Source of the DNA: Planctomycetota bacterium
GTDB taxonomy: Bacteria; Planctomycetota; UBA1135; GCA-002686595
Direction: 5' to 3'
DNA length: 64,000 nucleotides
Assembly (NCBI GenBank): GCA_038757895.1
Contig: JBCDGE010000012.1
Span: 1 to 64,000 of the forward strand
Part shown: positions 1,348 through 53,067 of the stretch, one piece after another
Numbering within the stretch: position 1 is the first letter of the stretch
Layout: every line of letters begins with the position of its first letter
Program-made: the position numbers and the translations under genes
The notes under the pieces: model-generated
Told to the model about the DNA's origin: nothing
What the model saw: the letters and a program-made list of their open reading frames with translations, nothing else
Database searches by the model: none

Positions 1348-2220
1348 TCAGCGGCCCGGGCGCGCGGCCGCTCCCCCGAGCAGGAGCTCCTCGACGAGCT
1401 CCGCGATCGCCTCGGTCCCGTGATCGCCGACGACGCGATCGGCCTCCGCCCGCACCTCGGGCAGCGCGTTTCCCATCGCCACGCCCAGGCCGGCGGCCCG
1501 CAGCATCGGAACGTCGTTATCGGCGTCGCCGACCGCGATGACCCGCTCGGGCAGGATGCCCTTCTGGTCCGCGAGGAAGCGCAGCGCCTCCGCCTTGCCG
1601 CGGCACGGCGCGTGGACGTCGATAGCGCTGTAGGTGTTGGTCCTGTGGCGCGGCAGGATCGACAGGGGGAAGTGCGAAACGTACACGGGCCCGCGGGCCG
1701 CCTCCTCCAGGTCGCGCACGACCGCGAGCGAGCCCGCCTCACCGCACTCGACGAGGAAGCTCAGACGAATCGTGTAGTCGCGCAGGAGCTCCTCCCGCTC
1801 GACGAACTGCACCCCGATGAACCCGTCGAAGTTCCGCTCCTCCGCGGCGCTGCGCGGAGCGAGGGCGAGCTTCTCGTCGGCCGTCATGACGATGACCTGG
1901 GCGTCGCGCCGGTCGGCCCAGTCGTGCAGCCGCGCGAGCGTGCGGTTGGACAGAGTCCGCTCCTCCAGCATCCGCTTCTCGGAGTGGCACCAGACGGCGC
2001 AGCCGTTGAAGAGCACCGCGGGCGCGCCGAGGTCGAGCTCCTCCACGATCGGCAGGGCCGAGATCTTGGACCGCCCCGTGACGACCATGACCTCCACGCC
2101 CTGGCGCTCGGCCTCCAGGATCGCCTCCCGCGTGCGGGGGTGGACCGTCTCGTCCGGGGTCAGGAGCGTTCCGTCGAGATCGAGCAGGAGGGCGTCGTAG
2201 GCGCGGTCCATCGGGCGCAT
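1348..2220 (-). CDS. HAD-superfamily hydrolase, Cof/HAD-IIB type
   Basis: N-terminal LLLDLDGTLL motif and C-terminal GDADNDVPML motif typical of Cof-type HAD phosphatases. 290 aa. Confidence 0.75.
   Translation of the reverse strand: MRPMDRAYDALLLDLDGTLLTPDETVHPRTREAILEAERQGVEVMVVTGRSKISALPIVEELDLGAPAVLFNGCAVWCHSEKRMLEERTLSNRTLARLHDWADRRDAQVIVMTADEKLALAPRSAAEERNFDGFIGVQFVEREELLRDYTIRLSFLVECGEAGSLAVVRDLEEAARGPVYVSHFPLSILPRHRTNTYSAIDVHAPCRGKAEALRFLADQKGILPERVIAVGDADNDVPMLRAAGLGVAMGNALPEVRAEADRVVGDHGTEAIAELVEELLLGGAAARPGR

Positions 2221-21301: not shown

Positions 21302-21305
<4 letters not shown>
20904..21305 (-). CDS. Ankyrin-repeat protein (last gene of the trp supraoperon)
   Basis: Ankyrin repeats in 134 aa (EALRRLVVGDPALADADVRWG..., TPLHFVCD..., DVLLEAGVDPD...). 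ATG overlaps the DAHP-synthase stop (ATGA, 21302-21305). The rest of ORF 20904..22145 is spurious. Confidence 0.6.
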
Positions 21306-22344
<1,039 letters not shown>

Positions 22345-22348
<4 letters not shown>

Positions 22349-22578
22349 CGCGCGACCTCCCCCTCGAAGGGACGGCCGCAGCCGCGCTCGATCGCGCCGA
22401 ACACCTCGCGGAGCTCCTCGGCGGGGAAGTCACCCTCCGCGCGGCGCAGGAGGTCGGACGTGAACGGCTCGGCGGCCGACGCAGGCGCGCCGTCCCGGGC
22501 GAGGTCGCGCGCCAGCCGCGCGCGCTCGTCGAGCAGTCGGACGATGGCGCGGTCGAGGTGGGACAGGTGGGCTCGCAT
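22345..22578 (-). CDS. Chorismate mutase (AroQ class)
   Basis: LSHLDRAIVRLLDERARLARDL... is a typical short AroQ helix. 77 aa. Stop overlaps the DAHP synthase start (ATGA). Confidence 0.65.
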
Positions 22579-22587
22579 GGTCGGATC

Positions 22588-23444
22588 TCAGCGTCGGGAG
22601 GCCTTGGGGAGGAGGGAGTCCATGAACTCGGTGGCGCGGCGAACGGCCGCTTCGGTCGGGTCGGCATCGGACGCGACGGCGGCCTCGGCCGCGTCGTGGA
22701 TCGCGGCGACGAGCGCGCTGCCGACGATCGCCAGCTCGGCGTGCGGCGCGACGGCCGCGACCTGCTCGGCCGTTCGGATGCCGAAGCCGACTCCGATCGG
22801 CGTGTCGCCCGCGAGCTCGCGAGCGCGCGCGAGGTACGCGTCGGCATCGTGCGACATCGAGGTCGCGGCGCCGGTGACGCCGGTCCGCCCGACGGCGTAG
22901 AGGAATCCGCGGGTCGCCTCGGCGGCCTGACGGAGCCGCTCGTCGCTCGTCGTGGGCGCGCAGAAGAGCACGCACGCGAGGCCGTGGCTCTCCGCGAGTC
23001 CGACGATCGCGGGCGCCTCCTCGATCGGGAGGTCCGGCACGAGGACGCCGTCGAAGCCGGCGTCCGCGAGCGAGCGGAAGCGGCCTGCGAGGCCGCCCTC
23101 GACGCCGCCGCCGAGGAGCGGGTTGAGGTAGCTGAACGCGAGGATCGGGACCTCGCCTCCGCGCTCACGGAACGTGCGCACCGTCGCCTCGATCCCGTCC
23201 AGGTTCGTGCCCGCCTCCAGCGAGCGCGCCGCCGCGGCCTGGAGCGTCGGTCCGTCGGCGATCGGATCCGTGAACGGCACGCCGAGCTCGACGCACGCCG
23301 CGCCGGCGCGCTCGACCGCGAACAGGAGCTCCAGCGTGCGGTCCAGCCCGCCGTCGCCCGCCGTCAGGTAGGGCGCGACCCGCGTCGACCCGCTCTCCCG
23401 GAGCCCCGTCGTCGTGACGACGAGCCGGTTGCTCTCCAGCCCGC

Positions 23445-23448
<4 letters not shown>
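22588..23448 (-). CDS. trpA: Tryptophan synthase alpha chain
   Basis: TAGDGG...[14 protein letters not shown]...GVGFGI motifs. 286 aa. Confidence 0.9.
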
Positions 23449-24697
<1,249 letters not shown>

Positions 24698-24701
<4 letters not shown>

Positions 24702-25369
24702 CGTGCGTCGGAGGGTCGGTGTGCCGCCCGGCGGGCGGCCTGGACGTAGCGGGTGACGGCGCTCGGGTCCTTGCAGCCGAGGTCCGCCTCCAGGCGGGAC
24801 GAGGCGTCGAAGCCGACGAGCGCCCGCGGATCGAGCGGCTCGGGGAGTCCCGCCGCGAGCAGCTCGGCGTCGAGCCCGCCGGCGAGCAGGCACGGCACGC
24901 TCCGCGCCAGGTCGGCGGCGAGGCCGGGGTCGACGACGCGCCCGGTCCCGCCGGGGCTGGACGGGTGATCGAGCACGAACGCCTCGGCGACGCCGCGCCA
25001 GGCGGCGACCTCGTCGTGCGCGCCCTCGTCGACGCCGAGGCGGCGCAGCACCGGATAGGGCGCGTCGCGCCAGTCGCCGGGGTCCTCGGACCCGCAGAGC
25101 TGCACGGCCGCGAGCTCGGCGTCGCGCACGAGCCCGTCGACGTGGTCGCGTTCGGCGTCGACGATCACGAGCACGCAGCGCGCGCCGCGCTCCCGGGCCG
25201 CCGTCGCGAGCGCGACGAGGACGAGGTCGGACAGGTGCCTCGGCGAGCGGGGATAGGACACGAAGCCCAGGAGGTCCGCGCCGGCCTCGATGGCCGCGAG
25301 GACGTCGACCTCGCGCGTGAGCCCGCAGACCTTCACGAGCGGCCCCTCGGTCGAATCGGCGAGCCTCAT
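24698..25369 (-). CDS. trpF: Phosphoribosylanthranilate isomerase
   Basis: VKVCGLTR...[11 protein letters not shown]-barrel PRAI. Start at ATG ending 25369, overlapping the trpC stop (ATGA). Confidence 0.8.
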
Positions 25370-26175
25370 CGCGCGTCCTCCGACAGCTCGGTCCGCCACG
25401 ACGTCAGGGTCGCCGCGGGATCGCCCGACTTCATCAGCGCCTCGCCCACGAGCACGGCGTGTGCGCCAGCCTCCAGCATCCGGCGCGCGTCGGCCGGCGC
25501 GTGGATGCCGCTCTCGGCGACGCGCACGATCCCCTCGGGGATGCGCGGGATGAGTCGCTCCGGCACGCCGAGGTCGACCTCGAACGTGCGCAGGTCACGC
25601 GCGTTCACGCCGAGGCAGTCCGGAGAGACCTCGATCGCGCGCTCCAGCTCGGCCTCGTCGTGGACCTCCAGGAGCACCGCGAGGCCGAGGTCGCGCGCGG
25701 CGTCGCGCAGGTCGCGCAGCCGCGAGCCCTCCAGGCAGACCGCGAGGAGCAGCACCGCGTCCGCCCCCATCGCAACGCTCTCGACGACCATGTCCTCGGT
25801 CAGCAGGAAGTCCTTGCGCAGCCGCGGGAGCCCGGCGGCCTCGACCGCCGCGAGGTCCTCGGGCCGGCCCTCGAAGTGGTCCTCTTCGGTCAGGATCGAC
25901 AGCGCCGCCGCGCCGCCGTCCGCGTAGGACCGCGCGCGCGCGCCGAGGTCGACCTCCTCCGAGAAGCGGCCGACCGAGGGCGAGCGGCGCTTGCACTCGG
26001 CGATGAATGAGAGGCCGGGTCCGGCGAGGGCGCGGGTGAAGCGCGTGACGCGCGCGGGGTCGGGATCGGCGAGCGCCGGCCCGCCCCGCGCGGCGGCGCG
26101 CGCCTCGGCGTTCCGAAGGACGCTGGCGAGGATCGGGTCGAGCCGCGTCCCCGTCGTCGGTGCCTCACCGCTCAC
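25366..26175 (-). CDS. trpC: Indole-3-glycerol-phosphate synthase
   Basis: [11 protein letters not shown]...LRKDF...[14 protein letters not shown] motifs. GTG start at 26173-26175 (VSGEAPTTG), overlapping the trpD stop. The upstream 257 codons of ORF 25366..26949 are rejected. Confidence 0.85.
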
Positions 26176-27197
26176 GACGCACCTCCCGTGATCTCGACCC
26201 AGCCGTCGAGGACGCGGCGAGCAGCGCCGCCGTCGATCGCCTCGCTCGCGCGCGCGAGTCCGTCGGCCGGCTCGCTGGCGACGCCCGCGACCACGAGCGC
26301 CGCGGCCGAGTTCAGGAGGGTCGCGTCGCGCAGCGGCCCGGGCGCTCCGTCGAGGACGTCGCGCAGGAGGCCGGCGTTGTGCGCCGCCTCCTCGCCGGCC
26401 AGCGCGGACACCGGCGCGGCGTCGAGCCCGACCTGGTCCGCGTCGAAGCGATGTGTCCCCGCAGAGCCGAGCGCCCAGACGACGTTCGGCCCGCTCAGGG
26501 TCAGCTCGTCCGCCCCGCCGTCCCCGTGCACGACGTAGGCGGCGTCGACGCCGAGCGCGTCGAGCGCGCCGGCGACGCGAGCCTGGATCTCGCGCGAGGG
26601 CACTCCGACCACCTGGCGGCGGACGCGGCCGGGGTTCGCGAGCGGCCCGACGAGGTTGAACACCGTGCGGATCCCGAGCGCCTTGCGCACGGGCCCCGCG
26701 TGCCGCATCGCCGGGTGGAAGCGCGGCGCGAACAGGAACGTGAAGCCCGTCCGCTCCAGCGCCGCGCGCGCGACGTCGTCGTCGACGTCGATCGCCCCCC
26801 CGAGCGCCTCCAGCACGTCGGCCGACCCCGACCGCGACGACACGCTGCGGTTTCCGTGCTTGACGACCTTCGCGCCCGCGGCGGCGGCGACGAAGGCGGC
26901 GGCCGTCGAGAGGTTGAAGGTGCCGAGCCCGTCGCCGCCAGTCCCGCACGTGTCGATCGCGTCGTCGGCGTCGTGCTCGAACGGGGTCATCCGCGCGCGC
27001 AGCGCGGCGGCGACGCCCGCGACCTCGTCCGCGGTCTCACCGCGCTGCGCGAGCGCGGCGAGGAAGCCGCCGAGCAGCACGGGGTCGTCCGCGCCGTCGA
27101 GGACGCCCTCGAAGAGCCCCTGGACGTGCTCGCGCTCCAGCGTGCCGCCCGAAGCGACGGTCTTGAGCGCCCCTGCGAGTCCGTTCGATCCCGTCAC
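26172..27197 (-). CDS. trpD: Anthranilate phosphoribosyltransferase
   Basis: DTCGTGGDG...NPGR motifs. GTG start (VTGSNGLAG) overlaps the trpG TGA stop (GTGA). Confidence 0.85.
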   Translation of the reverse strand: MTGSNGLAGALKTVASGGTLEREHVQGLFEGVLDGADDPVLLGGFLAALAQRGETADEVAGVAAALRARMTPFEHDADDAIDTCGTGGDGLGTFNLSTAAAFVAAAAGAKVVKHGNRSVSSRSGSADVLEALGGAIDVDDDVARAALERTGFTFLFAPRFHPAMRHAGPVRKALGIRTVFNLVGPLANPGRVRRQVVGVPSREIQARVAGALDALGVDAAYVVHGDGGADELTLSGPNVVWALGSAGTHRFDADQVGLDAAPVSALAGEEAAHNAGLLRDVLDGAPGPLRDATLLNSAAALVVAGVASEPADGLARASEAIDGGAARRVLDGWVEITGGAS

Positions 27198-27802
27198 CGC
27201 AGGCCACCTCCGACGGCGTCGAGCGCGACCGCCTCGCCAGCGGCCGAGAGGAACCGGGCAAGGAGCTTCGAGCCGAGCGGCGTGAGGATCGACTCGGGGT
27301 GGAACTGGACGCCGTAGCGCGGCAGCTCGGTGTGCTCGACCGCCATCACGGCGCCGTCCTCGGTCCACGCGACGAGGCGCAGCGTGTCGGGGAGCCGCTC
27401 GCGCTCGGCGCGAAGCGAGTGGTAGCGCCCGCAGGTCAGCGGCGAGTCGAGCCGCTCGAACAGCCCGCTGCCGTCGTGGTGCACGAGGCTCGACTTGCCG
27501 TGCACCGGCGCGCCGTCGACCTCCAGGACGCCGCCCTCGGACTCGACGAGCGCCTGGTGCCCCAGGCAGACGCCGAGCACCGGCGTCTCGCGCGGGAGCG
27601 CCTTCAGGAGTTCGAGCACGATGCCCGCGCCCTGCGGCCGTCCCGGGCCCGGGCTGATGACGACGGCGGTCGGCTGCATCGCGAGCGCTTCGTCGACGGA
27701 CAGCGCGTCGTTGCGCACGACGCGGACCTCCGCGCCGAGGGCGGCGAGCGCCTGGTCGAGATTGAAGACGAACGAGTCGTAGTTGTCGATCAGGAGGATC
27801 AT
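27194..27802 (-). CDS. trpG: Anthranilate synthase component II (glutamine amidotransferase)
   Basis: MILLIDNYDSFVFNL...GVCLGHQ...YGVQFHPES. ATG overlaps the trpE stop (ATGA). Confidence 0.85.
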   Translation of the reverse strand: MILLIDNYDSFVFNLDQALAALGAEVRVVRNDALSVDEALAMQPTAVVISPGPGRPQGAGIVLELLKALPRETPVLGVCLGHQALVESEGGVLEVDGAPVHGKSSLVHHDGSGLFERLDSPLTCGRYHSLRAERERLPDTLRLVAWTEDGAVMAVEHTELPRYGVQFHPESILTPLGSKLLARFLSAAGEAVALDAVGGGLR

Positions 27803-29328
27803 CGCGCGGCTCCCGCGGTAGCGGACTCGGTGGACGTGTTCGGCGAGGCGCCCGGCTGGAACGCCGGCGACGCGGCGACGCGCGCGGCCTCGAAGAGCGC
27901 GCTCGACTTGTGGAGCGTCTCCTCGTATTCGGCGGCGGGGTTCGAGTCGAGGACGACTCCCGCGCCGGCCTGGACGAGCAGCTTGCCGTTCGCGCAGACG
28001 ATCGTGCGGATGGCGATCGCGACGTCGAGGTCGCCCGCGCGGTCGAGGTAGCCGAACGCGCCGGCGTAGGCGCCGCGCGCTCGCTGCTCCAGGCCGGCGA
28101 CGAGCTCCATCGCGCGGACCTTCGGCGCACCGCTGACCGTCCCGGCGGGGAACGCGGCCGCGAGCGCGTCGAGGGCGTCGCTTCCCGGCGCGAGCTCGGC
28201 GCCCACGCGGCTGACGAGGTGCTGGACGCGCGGGAACTTGACGAGCGTCCGGTGCTCCTCCACCTCGACGGTGCCGACGCGCGCGACGCGACCGGCGTCG
28301 TTCCGCGCGAGGTCGACGAGCATGTCGTGCTCGGCGCACTCCTTCTCGTCGCGCCGCAGCTCGGCGCCGAGGTCGTCGTCCTCCGCAGTCGTGGCGCCGC
28401 GCGGTCGCGTGCCGGCGATCGGCACCACCTCGATGTGTCCGCCGCTGACCGAGACGAGGCGCTCGGGGGACGAGCCGACGAGCGTCTTGCCGTCGGCCTC
28501 GAAGAAGAACATGTGCGGCGCGGGGTTCACGAGGCGCAGCACGCGGTAGAGCGTGAACGGGTCACCCTCGAAGCGCTGCTCGAAGCGCTGCGACAGCACC
28601 GCCTGGAAGATCTCGCCCTGTCGGATCGCCTCCTTGAGCGACTCGACGCCGGCCTCGAACTCCTCGCGCGTGGTGAGCGCGGTCGGCTCGTCGTCGAGGA
28701 GTCGGAAGCCTTCGTCGACGGGCTCGGCGCCCTCGAGGCTCGCCGCGATCCGCTCGACGCGCGCGCGGGCGGCGTCGGCGTCCGGAGCGCCGTTCGGCGC
28801 CGCGCACAGGATCGTGCACGTCTGCGCCGCGTGGTCGAACGCGACGACGTCGGGGTAGTGGTCGAAGACCGCCTCCGGCTCGTCGCCGGCGTCCGCGGGG
28901 CGGGGCACGCGGGGCTCCAGCGTGCACGCCCACTCGTACGAGAAGGTGCCGATCCAGCCGCCGCGGAAGGGCGGGAGGTCGGGGTGCGGGACGCCGGCGC
29001 CGTCGCGGCCGCGCCGCCGCGACGCCTCGCGCAGCGCCTCGTGGGGCGAAAGGTCGAGCGTGTCCTCGGTCCCGTCGGAGCCGCGCAGCGTCGCCGCGGC
29101 CCGTCCGGCACGGAGCGAGCCGTCGGGGTCGAGGGCGACGAAGCTGTACCGCGCGAGCCGCTCGGGCCCCTCGACCGACTCCAGCAGCGCGGCGTGGTGG
29201 CCGGCGCCACGGAGCTTCTCGAAGGCCCGGACCGGAGTGGTCCGATCTGCGGGCAGGACGGCCCAGACGAGCCGGTGTCGTTCGGTGTCCTCGGGGGTCG
29301 AGGCACGGAGGGGTCGCGCGGCGTTCAC
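27799..29328 (-). CDS. trpE: Anthranilate synthase component I
   Basis: Chorismate-binding enzyme C-terminal motifs (GGYxG..., ...SSPERLV, GAGIV). 509 aa. GTG start (VNAARPL...). Confidence 0.9.
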   Translation of the reverse strand: MNAARPLRASTPEDTERHRLVWAVLPADRTTPVRAFEKLRGAGHHAALLESVEGPERLARYSFVALDPDGSLRAGRAAATLRGSDGTEDTLDLSPHEALREASRRRGRDGAGVPHPDLPPFRGGWIGTFSYEWACTLEPRVPRPADAGDEPEAVFDHYPDVVAFDHAAQTCTILCAAPNGAPDADAARARVERIAASLEGAEPVDEGFRLLDDEPTALTTREEFEAGVESLKEAIRQGEIFQAVLSQRFEQRFEGDPFTLYRVLRLVNPAPHMFFFEADGKTLVGSSPERLVSVSGGHIEVVPIAGTRPRGATTAEDDDLGAELRRDEKECAEHDMLVDLARNDAGRVARVGTVEVEEHRTLVKFPRVQHLVSRVGAELAPGSDALDALAAAFPAGTVSGAPKVRAMELVAGLEQRARGAYAGAFGYLDRAGDLDVAIAIRTIVCANGKLLVQAGAGVVLDSNPAAEYEETLHKSSALFEAARVAASPAFQPGASPNTSTESATAGAAR

Positions 29329-29387
29329 GGGTTCGGTGGGTCTGGGTCGGTTCGAGGAGGCGGGCGGAGGCGGGGCGGTACGCGAGC

Positions 29388-29417
29388 GGGCCCCCGGAAG
29401 GTGACTTCCAGGGGCCC
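29388..29417 (-). terminator. GC-rich hairpin (13-bp stem incl. one G.U, UCAC tetraloop) between candidate leader peptide and trpE; possible attenuator/terminator lacking a U-tract
   Basis: Transcript sequence GGGCCCCUGGAAG-UCAC-CUUCCGGGGGCCC. 45 nt after the leader stop, about 60 nt before the trpE start. Confidence 0.35.
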
Positions 29418-29461
29418 GCGGGTGTTCGGCGTGCCGCGCTCGGCGGCGAGTGAGCTCTCGG

Positions 29462-29578
29462 GAGGGACTACGACCGCCCGAGCGCCCGGGAACATCCGGG
29501 GCCCTGCTGGCACCACCATCGCCAGGACCAGCGCTGCTGGGTCCCGCGGGTGGAGGTCGTCGCGTGGAGAGAGGTCAT
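29462..29578 (-). promoter_or_regulatory. Candidate trp leader peptide (38 codons, 4 Trp: ...QQRWSWRWWCQQ...) in the leader of trpE
   Basis: Hand translation of the reverse complement gives ATG ACC TCT CTC CAC GCG ACG ACC TCC ACC CGC GGG ACC CAG CAG CGC TGG TCC TGG CGA TGG TGG TGC CAG CAG GGC CCC GGA TGT TCC CGG GCG CTC GGG CGG TCG TAG. No convincing Shine-Dalgarno. Not in the supplied ORF track (too short). Confidence 0.4.
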
Positions 29579-29743
29579 CCGGGCCAGAGGCTAAGGCGCG
29601 TCGACGTCGCGTGGGGCCCGGGCGACCGTGAAAAAAGTGTGGGCATGGGCGGATCGGGACGCCCGCGGTGCGTCGCCGCAGCCGAGTGCCGGCGACGCGG
29701 TGTGCGGCCCGACGTCGCAAAACGGTTCAATGGCGGAGGGTGA

Positions 29744-30376
29744 ATGGACCCACCGCACCCGCGTACCGCACGCCGCGCGACTGCCGCCGCGCCCGCCATG
29801 ACCGAAACCGTCCTAGCCAACGTCCTCGGCCTCGGAGTCGCCGACCTGCCCGCTCGCACCATGTACCTCGGGTGCGCGGCGCTCGGCGGCGCCGTCCTCA
29901 CCATCCAGCTCCTCCTCATGTTCATCGGCGGCGACGTCGCGGACGGCGAGGTGGACATGGACGGGGACAGCGACGGCCTGTCGTTCTTCTCGATCCGCGC
30001 CGTCGCTTCGTTCCTGACCTTCTTCGGCCTCATCGGTCTCTACGGGATCCAGCAGGGCTGGACCTCGACCGAGACCGCCGCCGGTGCCGTGGGCGCTGGC
30101 GTGGGGATGATGGTCGTCGTCGGGTGGCTCTTCTCGCTGCAGCGCAAGCTGCACCAGGAGGGCAACCTCGACCCGTCCTCCGCCGTCGGCTCGGCGGCGA
30201 CCGTGTACCTGCGGATCCCCGGCAGCGGCGAGGGCAAGGGGAAGATCACCGTCGCGATCCAGGGCAGGACCGCCGAGTACGCCGCGATCACCGACGGCCC
30301 CGAGCTGCCCACGGGGTCCGACGTCGTCGTCACCCGCATGGTGAACGACACGACCTTCGAAGTGGAGAAAGCCTGA
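29744..30376 (+). CDS. NfeD-family membrane protein (partner of SPFH/flotillin)
   Basis: N-terminal TM helices and a C-terminal OB-fold-like soluble domain (GKITVAIQGRTAEYAAITDG...VVVTRMVNDTTFEV). Alternative start ATG 29798. Confidence 0.65.
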   Translation: MDPPHPRTARRATAAAPAMTETVLANVLGLGVADLPARTMYLGCAALGGAVLTIQLLLMFIGGDVADGEVDMDGDSDGLSFFSIRAVASFLTFFGLIGLYGIQQGWTSTETAAGAVGAGVGMMVVVGWLFSLQRKLHQEGNLDPSSAVGSAATVYLRIPGSGEGKGKITVAIQGRTAEYAAITDGPELPTGSDVVVTRMVNDTTFEVEKA

Positions 30377-33041: not shown

Positions 33042-34904
33042 GTGACCGACGCGCCCGACAACGCTCGACCGACTTGGAGGGTCGCCGCGCTCGCGGCGGC
33101 CCTCTTCGTCGTTTCGCTTGCGCTGCGCTTCGTCGGGGTCGACCAGGGGCTGCCCCACCGCGGCGAGCCGGACACGTACATCGTCCAGCAGGCGGAAGCG
33201 CTCGTCCTCGACGGACTGACCGACCGCTACCGCGCCGGGTGGAAGTACCCCCACCTCGTCGCGACCGTCGTCGCGGCCGTGCCGGCGGAGGACATCGTTC
33301 GCCCGCCCGACGGCGCTTCTCTGGAGGAGCACGAGCGCGCCGCGACGGCGCTGCACCTTCGGACCCGAAAGGTCGCCGCGGTCCTGTCGGCGCTCGCGGC
33401 GCCGGCGACGTTCCTGATCGCGCTCCGCTTCCTGCCGCTCGCGTGGGCGGCGATGGCCGGGCTGCTGGTCGCTGCGAGCCTCCTCCACGTGTGCTTCAGC
33501 GTGCAGGCGCGGCCGCACGGGCCGGTGTCCGCGTTCGCCGCGCTGGCGCTCCTCGCGTCGCTGCGCTGGGCGGAGCGGCCGACGCTGCTGCGCGCGCTCG
33601 CTCTGGCGGCCGCGTCGGCGTGCGCGGTCGGGTCGCTGCACACGGGCTTCGCGGTGCTCGCACCGATCGCGGTCGCGACGATCGCGGCGCTGCGGAAGAC
33701 CGGCGTCCAGCGCGCGCACGTCGTGGCGGGCCTGCTCCTTGTCGGTGCGCTCGTGGCCGCGAGCACGGCGTGGTTCTACGTGCGCGCCGAGGACGGGTTC
33801 GGCAAGGACCCGACGAAGACGGCCGCCGCCCAGTCGCAGAGGCGCGGCGGGCTCGGATCGGACGAGCTCAACGAGGCCGCGGGCACGGGCCGGAACGTCG
33901 ATACGGAGTACGAGGGTCGCCGCGTCATCCAGTTCAGCGGCCACGTGGTCGCGCTCGACCTGTTCGACGGTGGCGGCTTCGGCGTCGCGTGGCGGACGCT
34001 GAGGACCTACGACCCGCTGATCCTCGCGTTCGCGCTCCTGGGCCTCGCGGCCGCTCTCGCGCGAGCGAGGCCAGGACTGAGCTTCAGCGCGACGTGGATC
34101 GTGCTCGGATTCGGGGTGCCGACGCTGCTGCTCTACGGGCTCTACGCCCGCAGCACGGACCGGTTCCTCCTGATCCTGGTGCCGATGGCGGCACTCGCCG
34201 CGGCGTACGGACTGCGCGTCGTCGCAGCGCGCGTCCCGCGCGTGGGCGGCGTCGTCGCGGGCGTCGCGATCCTCGCCATCACGGTCGCCGCGGCCAACGC
34301 CGCGCGCCTCCGCACGCTGCCGGACACGACGCAGCAGGCCGCTCGCTGGCTGCAGACGAACGTCGACCCGGAGACGTCGGTCCACCTGGCGAACCTGCGC
34401 TCGATCCCCCTCTTCATGCGGCCCAGTGACCTACGCGCGGACATGACGTGGGCGAACGGTCCGTGGGAGTCGTACCAGTGGGCGCTCCTGCGCCCGCGCG
34501 GCAAGTCCGTGCGCGGCGAGCGCGACGTCCCCACCGAGCCGACCCTGGAGGGCCCGCGTCGCCTCGGCCGCAACCTGGTCTACCCGACGACGGCCGAGCA
34601 GTACCGCATGGTCCTGAGCGACCGCCCGAGCGAGGTCGCGACCGAGATCCTCGACGGCGCAGCGCCCGACCGCGCGATCCTCGCCGTGCACCCCACCGTC
34701 CACGCGGGCCCGGTCGACCACTGGGCGCTCGCGAAGGCCTGGCGCACGCCGCTGCAACAGGAGCCGTGGCGCCAGGTCCACCGGATCGAGAACGGCCTCG
34801 CGGACGACGAGCCCGCGATGGAATACCGCCTCGACTTCTGGAAGGTGCTGCGCGCGCGCGCGTACGGATCGACGCTGGAGATCTACGCGGCGGCTACGCC
34901 CTAG
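33042..34904 (+). CDS. GT39/GT83-like (ArnT/PMT-like) membrane glycosyltransferase
   Basis: 620 aa, multiple N-terminal TM helices with a conserved acidic loop (RGEPDTYIVQQAE). Large C-terminal periplasmic domain. Confidence 0.65.
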   Translation: MTDAPDNARPTWRVAALAAALFVVSLALRFVGVDQGLPHRGEPDTYIVQQAEALVLDGLTDRYRAGWKYPHLVATVVAAVPAEDIVRPPDGASLEEHERAATALHLRTRKVAAVLSALAAPATFLIALRFLPLAWAAMAGLLVAASLLHVCFSVQARPHGPVSAFAALALLASLRWAERPTLLRALALAAASACAVGSLHTGFAVLAPIAVATIAALRKTGVQRAHVVAGLLLVGALVAASTAWFYVRAEDGFGKDPTKTAAAQSQRRGGLGSDELNEAAGTGRNVDTEYEGRRVIQFSGHVVALDLFDGGGFGVAWRTLRTYDPLILAFALLGLAAALARARPGLSFSATWIVLGFGVPTLLLYGLYARSTDRFLLILVPMAALAAAYGLRVVAARVPRVGGVVAGVAILAITVAAANAARLRTLPDTTQQAARWLQTNVDPETSVHLANLRSIPLFMRPSDLRADMTWANGPWESYQWALLRPRGKSVRGERDVPTEPTLEGPRRLGRNLVYPTTAEQYRMVLSDRPSEVATEILDGAAPDRAILAVHPTVHAGPVDHWALAKAWRTPLQQEPWRQVHRIENGLADDEPAMEYRLDFWKVLRARAYGSTLEIYAAATP

Positions 34905-50941: not shown

Positions 50942-52989
50942 GGACTCCGCTGGAGGTTCTGCGCGTCGAGCTGCTCCAGCTCGCGCGCGACAGGCGGGCG
51001 CTGTTCTCGGCGGTCGTCCTGCCGGCGCTGCTCTATCCCCTGCTCTTCCTGGGGATGGGCAAGCTGGAGTCGGTCGGCGAGGAGACGATGGCCGAGCGGA
51101 CGATCAAGGCTCGGATGGACCTGGAGGGCGTCGCCGACGCGACGCGCGAGGCGTTCCTGGCCGCGTTCGTCGACGAGGGCCCCGTCACGATCGAAGACGT
51201 CGACGCGTCGCGCCTCTCCGCGCTGGAGGACGACGAGGAGCGCCGGCTCGCGGCGCGCGAGATCCTTGGGCTCGACGGCGACGAGTCCTCGGCGGACGTC
51301 CTCGTCGTCGGCGTCCAGGACGACGGCGCGGCCGGCCAGGAGCGTATGACGTTCGACCTCTGGTACAACGTCAAGAACGACGACTCCCAGGAGGGTCGTT
51401 CGCGCGCGCGCGGTGCGCTGCGCGACCTGGAGAAGGAGGTCGCGATCCAGCGGCGCGAAGAGCTCCTCGGCGGCGATCCCGCGGCCGGGCTCGACGCGGC
51501 CGAGGAGGACGTCGCGACCGCAGAGGACACGAGCGGCGCCGCGCTCGGCAAGTGGCTGCCGTTCATCGTCCTGCTGGTGATGATCTCCGGCGGCGCGTAC
51601 GCCGCGCTGGCTGTGTTCGCGGGGGAGCGCGAGGCGGGCACGCTGGAGACGCTGCTCGTCCAGCCCGTCGACCACCGCTCGATCGCGACCGGCAAGTTCC
51701 TGGCCGTGTTCGTCGCGGGCACCGCGACGCTGCTCGTCAACCTCGGGAGCCTCGTCGCGTGCGTTGTCTCGGGGATCGCGGACATGGACGCCTTCGGCGG
51801 CGCCTCCGGCGGTATCAGCGCGGGCCGGCTCGCCGCGCTCGGCGTCGAGCTGCCGGCGTGCCTCCTGCTGTGCGCCGTGCTGTGCCTGGTCTGCGGCAGG
51901 GCGAAGACGTTTCGCGAGGGGCAGCTCCTCGTGTTCCCCGTCACGCTCCTGACCGCGCTGCCGACGGCGATCGTGCTGCGGCCGGACGCCGAGCTGAGCG
52001 TGTTCTGGGCGATGGTGCCGTTCTCCGGCTCGGGCCTCGCGCTGCGCGATGGGCTCGCGGGCGACCTGAGCCTGCCGCTGGCGGCACTCGTCGTCGCGTC
52101 GCACCTGGGCTGGACGTGGCTCGCGCTGGTTCGACTCGCAGGCATCCTCGACGCCGAGAAGGTCCTGGGCGGCGGCGGCGACGCGAAGGCCGAGTCCCAC
52201 CTGCAGCAGGCCGGCGGGCGCCATGGCGTCCGCTGGGGCTTCGCGGTCGTGATGACCGTGTACCTCATCGCGATGTCCGTGCAGCGCGTGGACATCGACG
52301 TCGGGCTGTGGTTCACGTTCTGGGTGCTGCTGCCCGCGTTCGCGCTCGCGATCGCCTGGACCGCGCCGCGGGCCGAGGGCGAGCGGCGGAACCTCGCCGG
52401 CGCGCTCGGCCTTCAGCTCCCCCGCCTGGCGCATGTCGCCGGCGCGCTGCTGATGGTCCCCGCGCTGACGAAGGGTGCGCTGTGGCTCGGCGAATGGCAG
52501 CAGCACGTGTTCCCGTATCCGCCCGGTATCGAGGCGCAGATGAACGGGATGGAGGCGTTCCTCGGCACGGCGAGCACGATGTGGCTCGTGTTCTTCTTCG
52601 CGATCTCCCCCGGTGTCACGGAGGAGCTCGTCTTCCGCGGCTCGCTCCTGTCGGCGATGAAGCGCGACTGGACGTGGCCGCGGATCATGGCCTGGCAGGC
52701 GCTCTACTTCGCACTCGTCCACGCCGACCTGTACCGGCTGCTCCCGACAGGGATCATGGGCGCGCTGCTGACCCTGATCGCGCTCCGGGCTCGGAGCGTC
52801 CTGCCGACGATCGCGCTGCACGTCGCCTACAACGCTGTCCTGGTGCTCGGCGCCGCGGAACGGCTCCCGTTCTCCGACGCCGAGTGGTTCGAGTACGCGC
52901 CGTGGGCCGCGATCCCCGGAGTGCTGCTGTTCGTGCTGGTGCCACCGCGCGCGAAGGCCGAGCCCAAGAAAGACCGCGACGTCGACTGA
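50938..52989 (+). CDS. ABC-2 permease fused to C-terminal CPBP (CAAX-protease/Abi) intramembrane metalloprotease-like domain
   Basis: N-terminal ABC-2-like TM region. C-terminal CPBP motifs EELVFRG, FALVHA, HVAYN. Probable TTG/GTG start near 50938, overlapping the ATPase stop. An alternative ATG lies at 51054. Confidence 0.55.
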   Translation: MRTPLEVLRVELLQLARDRRALFSAVVLPALLYPLLFLGMGKLESVGEETMAERTIKARMDLEGVADATREAFLAAFVDEGPVTIEDVDASRLSALEDDEERRLAAREILGLDGDESSADVLVVGVQDDGAAGQERMTFDLWYNVKNDDSQEGRSRARGALRDLEKEVAIQRREELLGGDPAAGLDAAEEDVATAEDTSGAALGKWLPFIVLLVMISGGAYAALAVFAGEREAGTLETLLVQPVDHRSIATGKFLAVFVAGTATLLVNLGSLVACVVSGIADMDAFGGASGGISAGRLAALGVELPACLLLCAVLCLVCGRAKTFREGQLLVFPVTLLTALPTAIVLRPDAELSVFWAMVPFSGSGLALRDGLAGDLSLPLAALVVASHLGWTWLALVRLAGILDAEKVLGGGGDAKAESHLQQAGGRHGVRWGFAVVMTVYLIAMSVQRVDIDVGLWFTFWVLLPAFALAIAWTAPRAEGERRNLAGALGLQLPRLAHVAGALLMVPALTKGALWLGEWQQHVFPYPPGIEAQMNGMEAFLGTASTMWLVFFFAISPGVTEELVFRGSLLSAMKRDWTWPRIMAWQALYFALVHADLYRLLPTGIMGALLTLIALRARSVLPTIALHVAYNAVLVLGAAERLPFSDAEWFEYAPWAAIPGVLLFVLVPPRAKAEPKKDRDVD

Positions 52990-53067
52990 GCAGAGCCGAC
53001 GCCGCGGTCGAGACGCGGCATCGCCACGCGCGATGCCGACCCCCGTTCGGTGTCTCGCGTTCCGGGC

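Follow-up and report, generated by a model that had tools for sequence, protein, structure and literature searches.

A candidate ribosome-mediated attenuator upstream of the trpEGDCFBA operon in a Planctomycetota bacterium

The DNA analysed here, called the window throughout, is a stretch of 64,000 nucleotides from a Planctomycetota bacterium (contig JBCDGE010000012.1, positions 1 to 64,000). Its minus strand carries a complete trpE-G-D-C-F-B-A operon. The first gene, which the preliminary description had named trpE, encodes anthranilate synthase component I and stands at the head of the full operon, and the remaining genes were recognised by matches to the profiles GATase, TIGR01245, IGPS, PRAI, PALP and Trp_syntA. 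The identical gene order was called in relatives. The closest TrpE relatives belong to Planctomycetota MAGs (99%, 83%, 81% identity and lower), and TrpE of the cultured strain Poly30 (Saltatorellus ferox) is 77% identical. These relatives speak against an actinomycete such as Streptomyces as the source. The genes of the locus are as follows.

27799..29328, minus strand: trpE, anthranilate synthase component I, GTG start (TIGR00564, 470 bits, E 9e-141)
22588..27802, minus strand: trpG, trpD, trpC, trpF, trpB and trpA, with approximate gene boundaries
22345..22578, minus strand: 77-aa ORF directly after trpA
21302..22348, minus strand: DAHP synthase (NF006421, 408 bits)

The first helix of the 77-aa ORF weakly resembles chorismate mutase type II (sub-threshold Pfam CM_2 match, E 6e-4), and the stop of this ORF overlaps the start of the DAHP synthase gene (ATGA). 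A split pair of regulatory domain and DAHP synthase may thus form an extension of the trp operon. On the other side of trpE, the plus strand carries a divergent NfeD-like/SPFH gene pair that begins at 29798; because this start is set by homology, the intergenic region measures 469 bp, and the 415-bp leader given earlier, which runs to an ATG at 29744, is replaced by this value. The transcribed leader probably comprises about 250 nt, and trpE would be the first gene regulated by the element described here.

A short trpL-like ORF lies in this intergenic region and ends 139 nt before trpE.

29468..29578, minus strand: leader-peptide ORF, ATG at 29578, TAG stop at 29470..29468
29513..29530, minus strand: regulatory codon run TGG-TCC-TGG-CGA-TGG-TGG (W S W R W W)
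29519..29521, minus strand: Arg codon CGA within the W run
29588..29593, minus strand: -10-like hexamer TAGCCT (TAnnnT), 9 nt before the leader ATG
29631..29636, minus strand: TTTTTT block, some 35 nt before the -10-like box

The ORF is composed of 36 sense codons and a stop (111 nt) and encodes the peptide MTSLHATTSTRGTQQRWSWRWWCQQGPGCSRALGRS. The peptide quoted in the preliminary description is exact; its count of 38 codons was too high, and its 3' end at 29462 lay 6 nt too far, as the TAG ends at 29468. The Trp residues occupy positions 16, 18, 20 and 21, which bears out the earlier reading of four Trp codons within six positions including a tandem WW. The view that such a cluster is improbable by chance also holds: it is the sole site in all six frames of the window with at least four TGG per six consecutive in-frame codons, and second-order Markov simulations gave a mean expectation of 0.06 such runs per 64 kb. 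Trp accounts for 11% of the codons in the leader ORF vs 0.73% in the downstream trp/aro cluster, the latter value being calculated from five ORFs (trpE, trpF, trpB, trpA and DAHP synthase). Of 17 leaders, 14 have CGA as the Arg codon in or adjoining the W run, and CGA makes up only 9.5% of the Arg codons in the local trp genes; slow decoding of this codon or a constraint on the RNA could explain the preference.

No Shine-Dalgarno sequence precedes the leader ATG, and a simple consensus scan of the leader region called no full sigma-70 promoter. The T, A and final T of the TAGCCT hexamer are invariant in A1, an alignment of nine sequences, and 14 of the 17 tabulated leaders have a TAnnnT motif 9-14 nt before their anchored start codon; the hexamer is accordingly read as a candidate -10-like box. 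With such a box 9 nt before the ATG, the leader-peptide mRNA is probably leaderless or nearly so, and transcription would probably start 0-3 nt before the leader AUG. The T6 block, conspicuous in DNA of 73% GC, is kept as a T run in A1 and is possibly a UP-element-like promoter part, shared with or facing the divergent NfeD-like gene. The assignments of promoter and terminator are based on conservation, since consensus scans called neither.

To follow the element beyond the window, the trpE-upstream DNA of relatives was chosen by TrpE similarity only. Upstream DNA was available for 20 related loci (TrpE 59-83% identical; loci are denoted by L numbers), and 16 of them have an ORF with a W run at the corresponding place, each followed by a GC-rich hairpin. 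Conservation of the short ORF in orthologous trpE leaders, which had been suggested as a check, is thus observed; four relatives (L004, L005, L007 and L169) lack the element. The close group (L001/L162, L002, L003, L161 and L163-L166) shares the peptide ..SWSWRWWP.GPGCS.., and L161, which is Poly30, carries a near-identical copy of the window element. More distant W runs are RWWWAGPG (L006), RWWWCTRPDPG (L081), RRWWWRSRPE (L082), QWWRWSPA (L083/84), RWWWRSRPG (L167), RWWWSSRPG (L168) and GWTWRWIGPE (L170). The N-termini and the length of the ORF (23-49 codons) vary freely and the frame and W codons persist; the indel adjoining the W run is of 3 nt. Within A1 the regulatory codon run TGGCGATGGTGG is invariant. 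ORFs with W runs before trpE were also seen in unrelated lineages of the TrpE-based sample (for example WWWW in Syntrophaceae and WWW in Anaerolineae), which shows the device to be widespread.

At 57% identity or above, the TrpE clade includes MAGs labelled Planctomycetota, Acidimicrobiia and Byssovorax (Myxococcota) (loci L007, L008 and L082), and the terminator of L008 is the same as that of L082. This suggests that the whole operon together with its leader was horizontally transferred.

Between the W run and trpE, the leader RNA contains two alternative helices and several smaller structures.

29490..29504, minus strand: segment 2, antiterminator 5' strand GGGCCCCGGATGTTC, inside the leader ORF (codons G-P-G-C-S)
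29485..29500, minus strand: local hairpin P1, CCCGG-ATGTTC-CCGGG, overlapping segment 2
29452..29487, minus strand: inner hairpin nested in the antiterminator, with the leader stop UAG in its apical loop
29412..29427, minus strand: segment 3, antiterminator 3' strand GAACACCCGCGGGCCC
29386..29419, minus strand: attenuator (terminator-like) hairpin GCGGGCCCCUGGAAG-UCAC-CUUCCGGGGGCCCGC, 15 bp, -35.4 kcal/mol
29377..29385, minus strand: tail UCGCGUACC, 2 U in 9, no canonical U-tract
29329..29385, minus strand: C-rich, G-poor spacer from the hairpin to the trpE start, 57 nt, 58% C, 18% G

The attenuator hairpin is the most stable uninterrupted hairpin of the window when both strands are considered (z = -5.6 against shuffles). 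It is specific to the minus strand, as a U.G pair in the stem becomes an A.C mismatch on the other strand, and the stem is conserved in A1 with compensatory changes (92.4% paired).

Segment 2, which reads GGGCCCCGGAUGUUC as RNA, pairs with the terminator 5' arm and its upstream flank GAACACCC in a 15-bp helix that can be extended to 19 bp. The 3' half of segment 3 doubles as the base of the terminator 5' arm, and with an overlap of at least 8 nt the two helices are mutually exclusive. A search for alternative pairings overlapping the Trp codons had been suggested as a check; the exclusive helices exist, and they lie just downstream of these codons and do not overlap them. When the full leader was folded by plain MFE, the terminator was returned every time, whether or not a ribosome was masked, and the antiterminator stayed hidden; the latter appears only in folds that omit the terminator 3' arm and thus correspond to the moment before its transcription. 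In such constrained folds the antiterminator was present in nine of nine leaders tested, and RNAalifold recovered the 15-bp helix independently from nine close relatives, the two sets of nine overlapping in part. Over the nine sequences of A1 the antiterminator is 98.5% paired, vs 26-53% with slid partners, and a column common to both helices is C-G/G-C in five sequences and U-A/A-U in four; the segment 3/4 sequences GGACCC/GGGTCC occur naturally in L002 and L161. One evolutionary event may account for this covariation, which was seen within the close group.

In distant lineages the segment-2 sequences differ, each fitting its own terminator flank, as in the pairs GGCCCTGAGTTCG/CGAACTCGGGCC of L083 and GGCCCCGAGGGCTC/GAGCCCTCGGGCC of L170. 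Taken singly, the duplexes are of modest significance, because GC-rich RNA makes complementarity cheap: with RNAduplex the window duplex of segments 2 and 3 beats 458 of 500 shuffles (the other 42 do as well), and the L082 duplex is no better than shuffles. The palindrome CCCGCGGG (29544..29551, minus strand), in the 5' part of the leader ORF and apparently specific to the window, can pair with the CCCGCGGG of segment 3.

In every lineage a hairpin equivalent to P1, but different in sequence, comes after the W run; examples read directly from the DNA are CCCGAGC/GCTCGGG in L082, CCCTGAG/CTCAGGG in L083 and CCCGAGG/CCTCGGG in L170. P1 could serve as an anti-antiterminator, trapping segment 2, or as a pause hairpin for RNA polymerase. 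In relatives too, the stop codon lies in or near the loop of the inner hairpin. A segment 1:2 hairpin over the W codons, as in E. coli, is not present in the window, and small GGCC/GGCC pairings were seen in L001-L003.

Taken together, these features make it probable, with good confidence, that the element is a classical ribosome-mediated transcription attenuator of the trpEGDCFBA operon, trpL-like in function. Ribosome-mediated attenuation had been proposed from the Trp codons, and the proposal is now supported by the conservation of the ORF and of the mutually exclusive helices. In the proposed mechanism, translation of the leader by a ribosome would begin before RNA polymerase has finished transcribing it. 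A shortage of charged tRNA-Trp would make the leading ribosome stall at the first of the four UGG codons and leave segment 2 exposed, so that emerging segment 3 would be captured in a 15-19 bp antiterminator; the base of the terminator 5' arm would then be tied up and the polymerase would read into trpE. When Trp is plentiful, the ribosome would cross segment 2, no antiterminator could form while the 3' arm is being made, and the hairpin of -35 kcal/mol would form and stop or strongly reduce transcription before trpE.

The geometry of the leaders is consistent with this scheme. From the first base of the last W codon to the start of segment 2 the distance is 8-11 nt (11 in the window), and from that of the first W codon it is 23-26 nt (26 in the window); with a stall at the first or second UGG, segment 2 begins 17-26 nt past the first base of the A-site codon. 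In a thermodynamic scan of ribosome positions, which ignores kinetics and sterics, the antiterminator persisted as long as the A site had not moved past the first W codons, was lost with the A site about 1-12 codons past the W run, and was favoured again once the ribosome stood at the stop codon or had departed. The relatives give a cleaner scan than the window, owing to the palindrome at 29544..29551 in the latter. Since the antiterminator is regained at the stop codon, repression must depend on timing, and the polymerase would be roughly 90-130 nt ahead of the ribosome. Masking of segment 2 by a ribosome at the stop codon, as in E. coli, was considered and is ruled out by the distances, the stop lying at least 20 nt beyond segment 2. 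The codon run and its conservation, the two exclusive helices, their covariation and the spacing are observed; translation of the ORF, the transcription start site, the timing that selects the helix and actual termination at a U-poor hairpin in this organism are deduced.

The window tail holds only 2 U in 9, and no terminator was called there by consensus scan. The 57-nt spacer that follows, which also lacks a Shine-Dalgarno sequence before trpE, is C-rich and G-poor, a bias shared by most relatives (L001-L003, L081 and L161-L168); it could be a rut-like or Rho-loading tract or a region of SD-independent initiation. In L163 the spacer (~1390..1470) is made up of about five tandem copies of a 15-nt CCCCTCTACTGGGTC-like unit between the hairpin and trpE. 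A hybrid scheme, in which the position of the ribosome selects the helix and Rho or NusG-assisted termination on the C-rich tract took over after loss of the U-tract, is unlikely, if still worth entertaining. It is quite improbable that, in a control still dependent on the leader peptide, the hairpin merely pauses the polymerase, with Rho ending transcription on the C-rich tract, or that the hairpin affects RNA stability. The poor tail and the composition of the spacer would fit such a role, but most homologous hairpins of relatives carry T-rich tails (L002, L003, L006, L163 and L167 show 5-7 T among the 9 nt that follow the stem; a TTTT/TTTTT run directly after the core stem in L164, L081, L082 and L170, which the script counted as part of the hairpin), as for an intrinsic terminator eroded in the genomes richest in GC. 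Moreover, the C-rich tract lies outside the alternative pairings, and Rho loading alone therefore cannot tell starved from replete cells. Two other very stable hairpins of the window, at 52972..53009 (minus strand) and 33076..33105 (plus strand), have T-rich tails (TTTCTTGGG and TCGTCGTTTCGC) and the look of canonical terminators, so the genome uses U-tracts elsewhere.

Invariance in the close group extends over TGGCGATGGTGG and the next 20 nt, third codon positions included, and, together with the leader ATG that lacks a Shine-Dalgarno sequence, would suit an RNA element that is not translated and binds a protein or ligand, with conservation of the TGG triplets as RNA and not as codons. This reading is very doubtful: the TGG triplets are always in frame with a start codon at a fixed distance from the -10-like box, and distant lineages keep the W run with different surrounding nucleotides. 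Known RNA elements were not detected either. At the gathering score, Rfam gave no match in the whole window or in 19 related loci, and on the leader at E up to 10 it returned only chance sub-threshold hits to the sodF sRNA and a frameshift element. A TRAP-type leader, with about 9-11 (G/U)AG triplets spaced 2-3 nt apart, is not seen in the 469 nt, where five such triplets are scattered and the longest properly spaced chain is 1; the T-box covariance model gave no match even at E up to 10.

Conservation of the close-group peptide past the W run (W-R-W-W-P-x-G-P-G-C-S), rich in Pro and Gly, raises the alternative that WRWW-P-x-GPG is a TnaC-like arrest peptide, sensing free tryptophan in the exit tunnel and not the charging of tRNA-Trp. 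Across lineages the segment-2 core GG[C/T/A]CC, whose distance from the last W codon (first base) is 6-12 nt, occurs in each of the three reading frames; the peptide 3' of the W run is therefore not conserved, and the apparent GPG conservation reflects an RNA constraint, not a peptide constraint. The polarity would also be wrong for a biosynthetic operon, as free Trp would cause stalling and hence readthrough, and the W...D...P-stop arrangement of the TnaC arrest peptide is not visible in the tabulated leader peptides; an arrest peptide is thus extremely improbable. Open frames are common at 73% GC and several spurious long ORFs overlap the region, but a chance ORF of no regulatory role is effectively refuted by the conservation of the W run, expected 0.06 times per 64 kb, and of the paired helices before trpE across many lineages, and retains a barely perceptible probability.

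Judged from its sequence, the conserved element is probably a genuine trp attenuator of the classical type, in a lineage for which literature searches of limited scope found nothing relevant on a planctomycete trp attenuator. It stands out by a leader ORF that is probably leaderless, by the location of an antiterminator strand within this ORF and by an eroded U-tract; apart from these points, it is the regulatory device expected for a trp operon. Ribosome-mediated attenuation requires ribosomes that translate the nascent RNA right behind RNA polymerase, and the planctomycete cell plan was once argued to separate transcription from translation. Because attenuation requires coupling, the conserved attenuator of these Saltatorellus-like Planctomycetota would be sequence-level evidence of tight transcription-translation coupling in a deep-branching planctomycete lineage. 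The leaders constitute an uncatalogued trp leader family with no Rfam, Pfam or NCBIfam model (the leader peptide matched neither Pfam nor NCBIfam, even at E up to 1), which annotation pipelines currently miss. With its near-identical copy in a cultured strain, the element offers a compact and testable case: Poly30 could show an attenuator working with SD-less, probably leaderless ORFs and U-poor terminators in GC-rich genomes.

Among known systems, trpL of E. coli is similar in having a short ORF before trpE with clustered Trp codons adjoining an Arg codon, and in antiterminator and terminator sharing a strand, so that a stall at UGG favours the antiterminator. It differs in several respects. 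There is no sequence or covariance-model similarity, and neither RF00513 Trp_leader (gathering score in the window and 19 relatives; no Rfam trp leader model at E up to 10) nor PF08255 Leader_Trp (E up to 1) gave a match. Four W codons are present here vs two in E. coli; the ORF runs through the antiterminator strand and has its stop at least 20 nt beyond, in the loop of the inner hairpin; the local hairpin that competes is placed 3' of segment 2 and not over the Trp codons; and no clear 5' segment 1 partner is present. Unlike the E. coli leader, moreover, that of the window lacks a Shine-Dalgarno sequence, is probably leaderless and has no U-tract.

In Sinorhizobium meliloti, trpL is a ribosome-dependent attenuator before trpE(G) that gives rise to the sRNA rnTrpL and the peptide peTrpL, and the released leader RNA and peptide can act in trans (PMC6614838, PMC7298713); a trans role for the planctomycete leader RNA or peptide would be pure speculation. 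A leader peptide encoded on a leaderless transcript was described for trpEGD of Deinococcus deserti, where the start was mapped by dRNA-seq (PMC4007540). The distance from the -10-like box to the start codon, about 6-14 nt here, is similar, whereas the planctomycete start is deduced from the conserved TAnnnT. Attenuators of actinobacterial trp genes, such as trpE of Streptomyces venezuelae and trp of Corynebacterium glutamicum, contain complementary gGCC-rGCy-GGCC triples common to antiterminator and terminator, and all actinobacterial terminators in that study carry poly-U tracts (Seliverstov et al., 2005; PMC1262725). The planctomycete element belongs to a different phylum and, in the window, has no poly-U, but it shares with them a GC-rich leader and UGG clusters (double or triple in actinobacteria), and its GGGCCC/GGGCCC/GGGCCC triple resembles theirs, a likeness that may reflect convergence of GC-rich attenuators.
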